64,000 nt of DNA from Octopus vulgaris (lineage: Eukaryota): positions 31,930,001-31,994,000 of the forward strand of contig OX597839.1 in assembly GCA_951406725.2 (NCBI GenBank), written 5' to 3'. Every line of letters starts with the position of its first letter. Positions within the stretch are counted from its first letter, which is position 1. Shown here in pieces: positions 46,879-50,034 of the stretch. The notes beneath the pieces were generated by a model that did no database searches, was not told where the DNA came from, and saw nothing but the letters and a program-made list of their open reading frames with translations. The translations under genes and the position numbers were made by a program.

Positions 46879-47347
46879 TGAGTGTATGCACACGCGTGCA
46901 CACATATTATGGAAAGATTCTAAAAAGATTATATCTATCTCAGACACAGGTGTGGATATGAGGTAAGAAGTTTGCTTCCCAACCACATGGTTCCAGGTTC
47001 TGTTTCACTGTGTGGCACCTTGGCCAAGTATCCTCTACTATAATCCCAGGCCAACCAAAGCATTATGGATGGATTTGGTAGACGGAAATTGTAAGGAGAG
47101 AGAGAGAGAGAGAGTGTGTGTGTGTGTGTATGTGTGTGTGTGTTTTTATTATTCTTCAACAAGAATATTATTGACGGTGATTTCAAAGTTCTGGCCAGTT
47201 AAACCATCAATCGATGATAGCTTAACTGGACATAACTTCAGAGTCAACGTCAATAATCTTGTTTAAGAATAATGGATTTGTATTCAACAAAAGTATAGGG
47301 AAACCCATCAGATTAAAGTAAAATTGTTTTTATTATGACTGAACATA

Positions 47348-47512: not shown

Positions 47513-48414
47513 CTTTATTAAATTTCTTGATTAGTCATGAACAGACATGACAAAACTATATATATATATATATATATGCATACACACACACTCACTAACA
47601 ATGAGCTTTATTCAGTTTCTGTCTACCAAATCCTTTCACAAGGCTTTACTCAACCTAGGGCTAGTGTAGAAGTTATTTGCCCAAAGTGCCACACCGGGAA
47701 CTGAACCCAAAACCATTTGGTCTGGGAAGAGGGAAGCAACCTTCTTAATCACAGCACCTGTGCATATATAAATATATATTACAGCCATTCAATTTCATAA
47801 CAAGAGTCAGATAGACAGACATTTCACTGAAAATTCATTTTCCCATTAATTAGATAAAATACAGCATATTACTTTTTCTTAATGTTTAATTTAATTCCAT
47901 TTCAATGAAAATATTTACTCCCCTAATATTCCTAGACAGACAGTTTCAATATGGTTGTGTCTCATAGGTATAAACTAATTAGTAGTAATAAAAATTAAAA
48001 AGAAAAAAGTGAAAATTGATAAAGACAGGTAGAAATATTTGATACAAATATTTAGTAAATATCAATATAACTCAGTTCATTTTTAGTTCAAATACAAAGG
48101 AAGGTAAATTAAAATTGATATAAAGATTTTAAAATTTTGTAAAATACACACACACACACACACACACAGAAGCTAATCGAGCAGCCTGTTTCTCAGGAAT
48201 TTCCCCAACACATTGTTGGTGCCTCATTCAGAGAACCTCCAAAATAATAGTTTACTGGATCAACTTAAAAATTGTATTGCATGTGATTGATGTTGCCTAT
48301 GCATTAAGGACACTATGAAGCAATATCTGGCATTAAAGACCCATCAAAGGGATACCTGGAAAAGGGCAGTTAAATAACTATGAAAGTATTCCCATTCACT
48401 ATCAATCAACAGCA

Positions 48415-48645
48415 ACAGATTTTATATATTATACTTTTACAAAAAGAGGGGTGATAGTGACTTCGAAGTTTCAGCCTAATAGCCTTCATCAGACTGTACA
48501 ACAGTTGGGTTCCTTTTGGCTTTATATAGACTATATAAAGTCAAAAAGAACCCTAGTGTAGTATGGTCCAATGAAGGCTAGCTGATCAAAACTTCAAAGT
48601 TACTGTCACCCCTTTTCTTGTAAGAGTATAATATATAATATCTGT
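48415..48645. repeat. 231-bp palindrome (inverted Penelope-like pLTR pair)
   Basis: Arms 48415-48529 and 48531-48645 align without gaps, 92/115 identical by manual count; 1-nt spacer. Confidence 0.9.
48454..48497 (-). ncRNA. Type I hammerhead ribozyme (minimal, Penelope-like)
   Basis: Minus strand ACAGU CUGAUGA A GGCUAUUAGGCU GAAA CUUCGAAG UC ACUAU: intact core, palindromic stem III, GUC cleavage triplet, 4 of 5 stem I pairs. Confidence 0.75.
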
Positions 48646-48711
48646 ATGGACTCAACAAATTCTTCAGTTTCACGATAAATTGTTATAACTCAACAAAAAA
48701 AAAACCATATA

Positions 48712-48941
48712 TGAGGGGTGCTGAAAAGTTCCTGGCTTTGGGTAAAAGAAAATACAGGAGGGTCAGTTAAATATGGTTTTACTCAACATGTTCCTCTCTC
48801 AGGTTCACACACTTATCACAGCGGTCCTTCAGTTTTTCTAATCCTTGTAAAAGAACCTGGAAGGTTGGACCTCCAATTAGGCCTTTCATGATACCCTCCA
48901 GTTGAGCCTTCCACGATCAGACACTTTTCAGCGTCCCCTCA
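48712..48941. mobile_element. Tc1/mariner-type MITE
   Basis: TIRs tgagggg-tgctgaaaagt and acttttcagcgtcccctca; left flank TA, right flank TG (decayed). Confidence 0.7.
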
Positions 48942-50034
48942 TGTGTGCGTGTGTGTGTGTATGTGTGTGAGAGAGAGAGAGAGAGAGATGGAAATGAATA
49001 ATGAAACAAGTAAACACTATCACACTAATAATGAGTTTATTTGAGTTGAAGGAGTTATATGGAAAACAAAAAACAGAATTAAAAAAGAATGTTGAAATAA
49101 AATGTGGAATTTATTAAATTAAAATCAAACTGATTTGATATCTCATGAAATTATAATGTCACAACACTAAGATGAACAAAAAAAATAGTATGCATGTGTG
49201 TGGGGGTGTTTATAGATGGGTAAGGTGTGGTGGGTGTGTATGCATATGCACTACAGTGCATGTGTGTGTGGATGTATGTGGGTGAGAATAGGTGTGGGTA
49301 TTCACTTGTATATTTATAGGTGACAGTGTGGAGTGGAGCATGTGGATATGCGTGAGTGAATGCAATGTGTAATGTTGTATATGTGAGTAGATAGACATGT
49401 GTGAAGGTGCCTGACAACATAAGCTCAGCAACATTTTGTAAAAACAAAATCTGAAACTTTATATGAGACATGTTTAAAAACGCAACAGAAAGAGCAATGA
49501 CCGCAAAGGCCAGGCTGCTGCAACAAATAAACAAAAGCAGTGCTGAGGGGATTTACTGAGGAAAACAATTAATAAAAGGATTAAAGTATCTCTTGTATCT
49601 ATCACAGTCAACATAGTTTTATGATTATTTCTGTGTGGCCCCATCAACAGCCATGTCTGTTCAAGTGTAATCAATAACTTTAATAGTCTTAAAACTATTA
49701 AATTTATTGATTAGTCATGAACAGACATGACAAAACTAAATAAATCTAAGATTCCATTATGTTTTCCTAAAAATATATGAGATTCTGACACAAACTGTTT
49801 AATCCACTTTACCTGCTGTTCATAGGGAAATGACTTAGGATAGTTGAGCTGTGGTCACTCAACCCACTAGATATAGCAGCCAGATTTCTCTAAATTACAC
49901 CCCGCTGTTTTGAATAAAGAAGTGACATAATTAATGCGACACCTAAGAGAAAGCTGGGATGGTCATGGATGGAACTTCTTTGAGCCCACTGACATAAAAA
50001 CACAGCAGTAGGAGGTCACTGAGGACATTCAACA

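Follow-up and report, generated by a model that had tools for sequence, protein, structure and literature searches.

A palindrome in the Octopus vulgaris genome is probably an old fold-back insertion of Penelope-like element ends with a decaying minimal hammerhead motif

In a 64-kb stretch of Octopus vulgaris DNA (the window), two inverted arms meet head to head at positions 48415 to 48645, and each reads outward into a hammerhead-like motif. Is this palindrome a cassette, with a fixed centre, a two-way TATA, and twin ribozymes giving divergent self-cleaving RNAs, as the first-pass annotation proposed, or is it the debris of a retroelement, which the same annotation also considered? We regard it as very probable that the locus is an old fold-back insertion of Penelope-like element (PLE) ends, with a minimal hammerhead that is decaying and likely functionless now. 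The features are as follows, with family columns counted from the first base of an arm.

48415..48529, minus strand: left arm, which repeats the pLTR-like end of the family in inverted orientation and with a short end (model columns 1 to about 109-115)
48454..48497, minus strand: minimal type I hammerhead motif that retains its core letters and has weakened stems I and II, with a predicted misfold and a predicted cut at 48459/48458
48520..48528, minus strand: TATATAAAG, the TATA-like box of the family
48528..48532, no strand: fold-back junction AG-A-CT, an interrupted micro-palindrome already found in single family copies
48531..48645, plus strand: right arm, a direct copy, the portion that pairs with the left arm
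48532..48540, plus strand: TATATAAAG
48563..48606, plus strand: decayed hammerhead copy
48632..48713, plus strand: tail extension that the left arm lacks, covering family columns of about 102-198, with an approximate right end
47145..47347, no strand: second, more decayed head-to-head pair of the same family, with its junction near columns 43/40 and a tail confined to the plus arm

The arms have the geometry first described for them: 115 nt each, ungapped, separated by a 1-nt spacer, and 80% complementary with 23 mismatches. The TATA can indeed be read both ways, since TATATAAAG points outward on the plus and the minus strand. An RNA reading through the palindrome is predicted to form a 115-bp hairpin of −120 to −132 kcal/mol. 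The locus is nevertheless asymmetric. The plus arm continues as family sequence to about 48695-48715 (profile matches run to about 48693 in one case and to 48715 in another), and the left arm ends near 48415-48422. Single family copies read AG-A-CT into the TATA. From 48528 on, the plus strand does the same, and the minus-strand sequence is AG-T-CT; the overlap of the arms is thus an interrupted palindrome of 5 nt. The centre that had been called perfect is a fold-back site native to the family.

Two details tie the arms to each other. The middle base of the junction follows the tailed arm when the window sequence is set against the family majority. Beyond column 101, both arms carry a common 14-nt stretch, 13 of 14 positions identical, that departs from the majority, as expected if one template gave rise to both. 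The left arm differs from the majority at 8 of 101 columns and the right arm at 16, relative to a majority biased toward this locus because the first search used it. The second pair lies 1.1 kb away, inside the window. Other repeats are found nearby. A very high-copy short element with terminal inverted repeats (48715-48942) is inserted directly after the tail. Another short head-to-head palindrome (49652-49729; 39-nt arms, 87%) is unmatched by the hammerhead family's model, and a partial single-arm copy of it lies 2.2 kb off at 47516-47568.

We then asked how well the hammerhead motifs are preserved. The minus copy (48497-48454) has the core CUGAUGA, one extra A, a stem II of 3 to 4 bp, GAAA, a GUC triplet, and, as stem III, the 10-nt palindrome ACUUCGAAGU. 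A minimal-hammerhead descriptor demanding the core, 3-bp stems I and II, and a palindromic stem III matched this copy and nothing else in the 64-kb window. Its chance rate was 0.02 per 64 kb, and a palindrome of at least 8 nt appeared in 0 of 100 Markov resamples. Judged by a CUGANGA core, GAAA, an NUH triplet, stems I and II, and a palindromic stem III, the minus copy qualifies as a minimal hammerhead motif, as does the family majority, and the plus copy does not; the latter is decayed, as had been noted, with CCAAUGA, AAAA, and a broken stem III palindrome. The Rfam models, also suggested as a check, gave no hammerhead match at an E value of ≤10 at the locus, nor did they match the family copy at any of six others. 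A separate Rfam Hammerhead_1 match (29.1 bits, E value of 0.0013, below the gathering score) lies at L145:2179-2242 on the minus strand, about 600 bp from a family copy.

The description of the minus hammerhead as intact holds for the core letters, the palindromic stem III, and the GUC, but not for the fold. Stem I contains a C.A mismatch (ACAGU/ACUAU), a G.U replaces the conserved G10.1-C11.1 pair, and in the predicted structure the CUGAUG core is hidden within a hairpin of 10 bp (−10.6 kcal/mol). For the homodimer of the extant copy, a misfold of −35.1 kcal/mol is predicted, versus −12.3 kcal/mol for the hammerhead fold. Ribozymes on opposite strands are unable to dimerize within one transcript.

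The copy number that the annotation had wanted counted proved to be high. In the searched genome (2.8 Gb, 227 contigs), the arm is a member of a dispersed repeat family, with at least 65 matches among the best 40 of 505 candidates scored, and candidate copies number at least in the hundreds. Further searches with locus references brought the total to about 150 loci, duplicates included. In family columns, the TATA occupies 2-10, stem I 33-37, the core 38-44, the extra A 45, stem II 46-57, GAAA 58-61, the palindrome 61-70, and stem I′ 72-76, with the cut after 71. The exact 9-mer TATATAAAG was present in 13 of 47 long copies. The 3′ ends of family hits are bimodal, at columns 90-119 in 51 of 138 and at 200 or beyond in 64 of 138, and the tailed, long-ended copies mostly give way to TA/CA microsatellite. 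Microsatellite flanks are observed around family copies, and insertions sit in AT-rich or microsatellite DNA, the flanks having been read by eye. Median identity to the majority is 80% (54 copies). This divergence is close to the Jukes-Cantor distance of 0.2 to which the available part of one study dates a PLE expansion in Octopus vulgaris (PMC13282606).

The family majority has a ribozyme that is predicted to work as a pair. With stem I ACAGU/ACUGU and stem II GGC/GCC, its lowest-energy structure in two-strand folding was the dimeric hammerhead, at −27.3 kcal/mol, in which stem I has 5 bp, stem II 4 bp, and the intermolecular stem III 10 bp. The annotation had derived an ancestral stem I of ACGGU/ACCGU from CpG decay. 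Such decay is symmetric at columns 57-58 and 65-66 and asymmetric at 34-35, where 102 copies read CA 71 times, CG 3 times, and TG once, so ACGGU is ruled out as the family ancestor. A CG ancestor at this locus alone is possible, given that organism D, which shares the locus, carries CA at 48564-48565. The U4C core (CCGAUGA) that had been suggested turned out to be a real minority state: columns 39-40 read TG in 66, CG in 21, and CA in 13 of 117 copies, a sample enriched by one U4C query, and the CG and CA counts point to a U4C subfamily. According to the accessible part of PMC3088659, U4C reduces activity in vitro. The family is also present in the more distant organism E (run X14, 48472), where a weak majority (0.54 agreement, 14 contigs) reads a U4C core. 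A further short hammerhead-bearing repeat, at about 5010-5053 of L122 on the minus strand, has a CCGACGA (U4C) core, and L130 contains a similar motif.

Covariation within the family stayed at shuffle level (the score was reached by 183 of 500 shuffles; 82% of cells were paired). The hammerhead fold consequently rests on the motif match rather than on compensatory change, and such a result is as expected for neutral decay from few parents. Core columns are slightly better kept across copies (A, 0.92 versus 0.88), for which search bias could be the cause.

To see whether the palindrome recurs with fixed ends, a check proposed at the outset, we looked at the inverted pairs of the family. Automatic mapping gave 20 after duplicates were dropped, a count that leaves out the main locus, L003, and L147, which the automatic rule missed. 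Junctions differ from pair to pair, from column −1 to column 83. Sixteen of the 20 are asymmetric, with one short and one tailed arm, the tail of about 100 nt being on one arm alone. The main locus, tailed on its right arm only, obeys the same rule. The TATA region is kept on both arms in just 2 of 22 other mapped pairs, L003 and L147. A clear inverted partner (score of at least 57, against a shuffled maximum of no more than 46) was found at 9 of 26 tail-selected, nonduplicate loci, and several more were seen by eye. No target-site duplication was seen. The head-to-head palindrome is a common insertion form of this family and not a fixed cassette.

A long inverted repeat in AT-rich DNA might also be a miniature inverted-repeat element (MITE) or a fold-back DNA transposon with long terminal inverted repeats, its resemblance to a ribozyme being incidental. 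The adjoining MITE at 48715-48942, which we take to be Mariner-like from its end motif, would favor such an origin. Many family copies, however, are single and 5′ truncated, and this, together with the variable junctions, largely refutes a transposon of either kind; the ends are asymmetric as well, and the descriptor match exceeds chance. We consider such an origin so improbable as to be nearly negligible.

What was found instead is the published signature of PLE insertions. The parts of Arkhipova et al. 2013 (PMC3846280) available to us describe head-to-head inverted pLTRs with a tail on one, junction palindromes, solo pLTRs, and a two-way TATA, and those of Craig et al. 2021 (PMC8557442) present the inverted pLTR structure as general for PLEs. 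Our 16 one-tailed pairs of 20, with their variable junctions, carry this signature, palindromic junctions and two-way TATA included. As in the EN+ PLE units of these two sources, the family has a head-to-head, inverted, 5′-truncated copy with a tail on one arm, a junction palindrome (attributed there to self-priming), solo pLTRs, and a preference for (TA)n, besides the pLTR hammerhead; the TATA readable both ways was proposed there as a bidirectional promoter. In contrast to the units as described there, the family has no open reading frame (ORF) between or beside its arms, its tail measures about 100 nt rather than 30 to 40, no target-site duplication is apparent, and many copies begin exactly at the ribozyme. 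Short family motifs were not found in the accessible part of the PMC8557442 supplement. The first option of the annotation, a relic of a PLE whose pLTRs are inverted and whose minimal hammerhead is of the dimer type, is supported.

The ribozyme itself fits the same group. Like the metazoan PLE hammerheads of Cervera and de la Pena 2014, as far as the available part of that work shows them (PMC4209133), it has a short helix I, an unpaired base between 9 and 10.1, G10.1-C11.1 (in the family), and a palindromic helix III for dimers, and it occurs mostly as single dispersed motifs. The same source reports "dual" hammerhead motifs on opposite strands, 100 to 700 bp apart. The family's motif differs in a helix II of 3 to 4 bp, a 10-nt palindrome, and a U4C subfamily. 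Non-LTR retrozymes, judging from the part of the preprint available (bioRxiv 10.64898/2026.07.22.740005), are likewise protein-free, carry type I hammerheads, and derive from PLE pLTRs, but they are defined by head-to-tail tandem units, whereas copies here are single or head to head. Because no head-to-tail tandem array was seen in the window or the profiled loci, the family is not a retrozyme. Nor is a TATA universal among PLEs, since the Drosophila Penelope promoter is TATA-less in the portion of PMC2377424 consulted.

A sequence of events can be proposed for the locus. Reverse transcriptase would have started at the end of the tail (right arm, about 48700), run through the ribozyme, and halted just past the TATA. 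The new cDNA end may then have folded back on the AG-T-CT micro-palindrome and been copied on itself, yielding the shorter left arm, and the fold-back unit would then have become linked to target DNA rich in AT. The parent's ribozyme was presumably active as a dimer held together by its palindromic stem III of 10 nt, and transcription from the TATA likely began at stem I. The two TATA boxes of the locus would be an accident of where copying stopped.

Could the locus still function? It is common to organisms A, C, and D, and contigs of organism D, from two runs, cover the whole repeat (48184-48686), with 27 substitutions in 503 bp and 5 gap bases. At least 14 changes fall in the 231-bp repeat versus 9 to 13 in the 272-bp flank; 23 of the 27 were listed (14 in the repeat, 9 in the flank) and 4 were unlisted, and the Fisher p value is 0.20, or 0.56 if all four unlisted changes are assigned to the flank. 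One change, at 48464, breaks the stem III palindrome, and a 1-nt insertion at 48482 falls in stem II. None of the listed changes affects the core letters of the minus copy; about one at most is expected in 14 positions, so at 5% divergence their retention is unremarkable. Divergence in the repeat is no slower than in its flanks, and the orthologue shows no extra constraint. The arms differ from each other about four times as much as the host differs from organism D, and the insertion is therefore much older than the split of these two species.

These data bear on a working bidirectional promoter from which RNAs would run in both directions, with self-cleavage of the minus-strand product. In its favor, TATATAAAG and the inferred start region survive on each arm, the minus copy retains its core letters, and three organisms share the locus. 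Yet the repeat is no better conserved than its flanks and has lost its stem III palindrome in D, the minus copy is predicted to be misfolded, the plus copy lacks core bases, opposite-strand copies are unable to dimerize in cis, and two-arm TATAs are rare among the other pairs. We judge such a promoter very unlikely. With variable junctions, a TATA pair in 2 of 22, and an unconstrained orthologue, the cassette proposed at the outset is not supported, and an old fold-back insertion of PLE ends is the reading we keep.

If the family is a PLE, where is its ORF? GIY-YIG matches in the genome were many (best 150 of 6,136 candidates scored), among them a 781-amino-acid frame with reverse transcriptase (RT) and GIY-YIG at L115. 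This frame belongs to a young Neptune-like PLE (L115:406-5172, L116, L119) with a 359-amino-acid upstream frame lacking a Pfam match; the 781-amino-acid frame has many copies, and the element's hammerhead-like motif has a UUGAUAA (U3-A8) core. The name Neptune-like, for L115, L116, L117, L118, and L120, is our assumption, based on a cysteine linker motif and not on a phylogeny. Like the family, the genome's ORF-bearing PLEs have tails, TA flanks, and hammerhead variants of their own near the 3′ end, and terminal copies in inverted orientation occur in L117 and L118. These PLEs differ from the family in carrying RT and GIY-YIG, and none of their ends matches the family profile.

The annotation had seen no RT or GIY-YIG ORF beside the palindrome, and tblastn with the genome's PLE proteins over the window likewise returned nothing. 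Elsewhere, tblastn found PLE pieces in 2 of 20 upstream 7-kb stretches and at 1 of 80 further loci. Those beside L130, L136, and L206 each close in their own ribozyme-like motif and tail before the family sequence, and a family-linked RT or GIY-YIG ORF was found in none of the 20 stretches, a small sample for an old family of which about 150 loci were covered. None of 72 tailed copies continued into family-specific shared sequence, and translation of the long copies revealed no clear frame. PLE membership therefore rests on structure and not on RT. L120, L136, and L206 represent another PLE family, whose own hammerhead has a palindromic AGUACU stem III. Two copies of the L120 type (L136 and L206), 99.8% identical over 1,260 bp, lie upstream of long family copies in the same orientation, perhaps through shared TA targeting. 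A link between the family and this young PLE was rejected because the latter ends in its own ribozyme and tail.

Long copies and 5′ ends bear on the nature of the parent. Upstream of column 1, the longest single copies extend for roughly 850 bp, and they grade into TA/CA microsatellite-like DNA at similar points. Fifteen of 29 tail-selected copies start at columns 28-41 (p of about 1e-5 versus a uniform distribution over columns 1-87), and many inverted pairs are likewise joined near those columns. Agreement with the majority among 13 solo copies stays at background through column 32, steps up over columns 33-36, and is high from 35-36 on; chosen for starting there, these copies fix the position and not the frequency. 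Column 35 lies within an initiator-like CAGT, 31 nt past TATAAAG. The position of these ends, at the first bases of the ribozyme and about 31 nt past the TATA, suggests a real start site in the parent element. Its RNA likely began at stem I, and short copies were likely primed on the 5′ end of that RNA, which agrees with an anole PLE for which priming was shown to occur internally, close to the 5′ end (PMC11167929). We found no description of a 5′-end pile-up after a TATA in the literature searched.

The same observations, together with the missing ORF link, favor a parent that was a nonautonomous, ORF-less PLE derivative (about 1.05 kb, plus ribozyme-first minis of about 70 to 170 nt) copied in trans by Neptune-like PLEs. 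This agrees with the best explanation on the locus, one fold-back insertion, and differs on the parent. Several points weigh against it. In ORF-bearing PLEs (L117, L122), microsatellites follow the stop codon and the 3′ untranslated regions are about as long, which means that a truncation hot spot could mimic the picture. Given the age of the family, copies with an ORF may be rare or no longer recognizable among the loci covered, and tandem arrays, which mark retrozymes, were not seen. We hold a nonautonomous parent to be possible but rather doubtful. The ORF-less mini-element of the annotation accordingly finds support at the level of the family only, in the ORF-linked copy that was not found and in the many short ribozyme-first units.

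The locus itself is an ordinary retroelement scar and not worth pursuing as a cassette; fold-back insertions of PLE ends are of a known kind. The family has modest value for understanding how PLEs make inverted copies and solo pLTRs. Junctions on micro-palindromes, a junction base that here comes from the tailed arm, and the pile-up of 5′ ends fit fold-back of first-strand cDNA made from sense RNA, in contrast to the self-priming on an antisense template favored in the available part of PMC3846280. What is new here is that the 5′ ends of copies pile up at the start of the ribozyme. Our most speculative proposal, and an unlikely one as it stands, is that the family is an ORF-less PLE satellite whose TATA starts the RNA at the first bases of the hammerhead, initiator and stem I overlapping. 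If so, the capped RNA would have 3 bp of stem I versus 5 bp in a read-through RNA, a built-in cleavage switch; priming on that 5′ end would explain the many ribozyme-first copies of 70 to 170 nt; and the positions of the insertions would reveal where transcription of an extinct element began.
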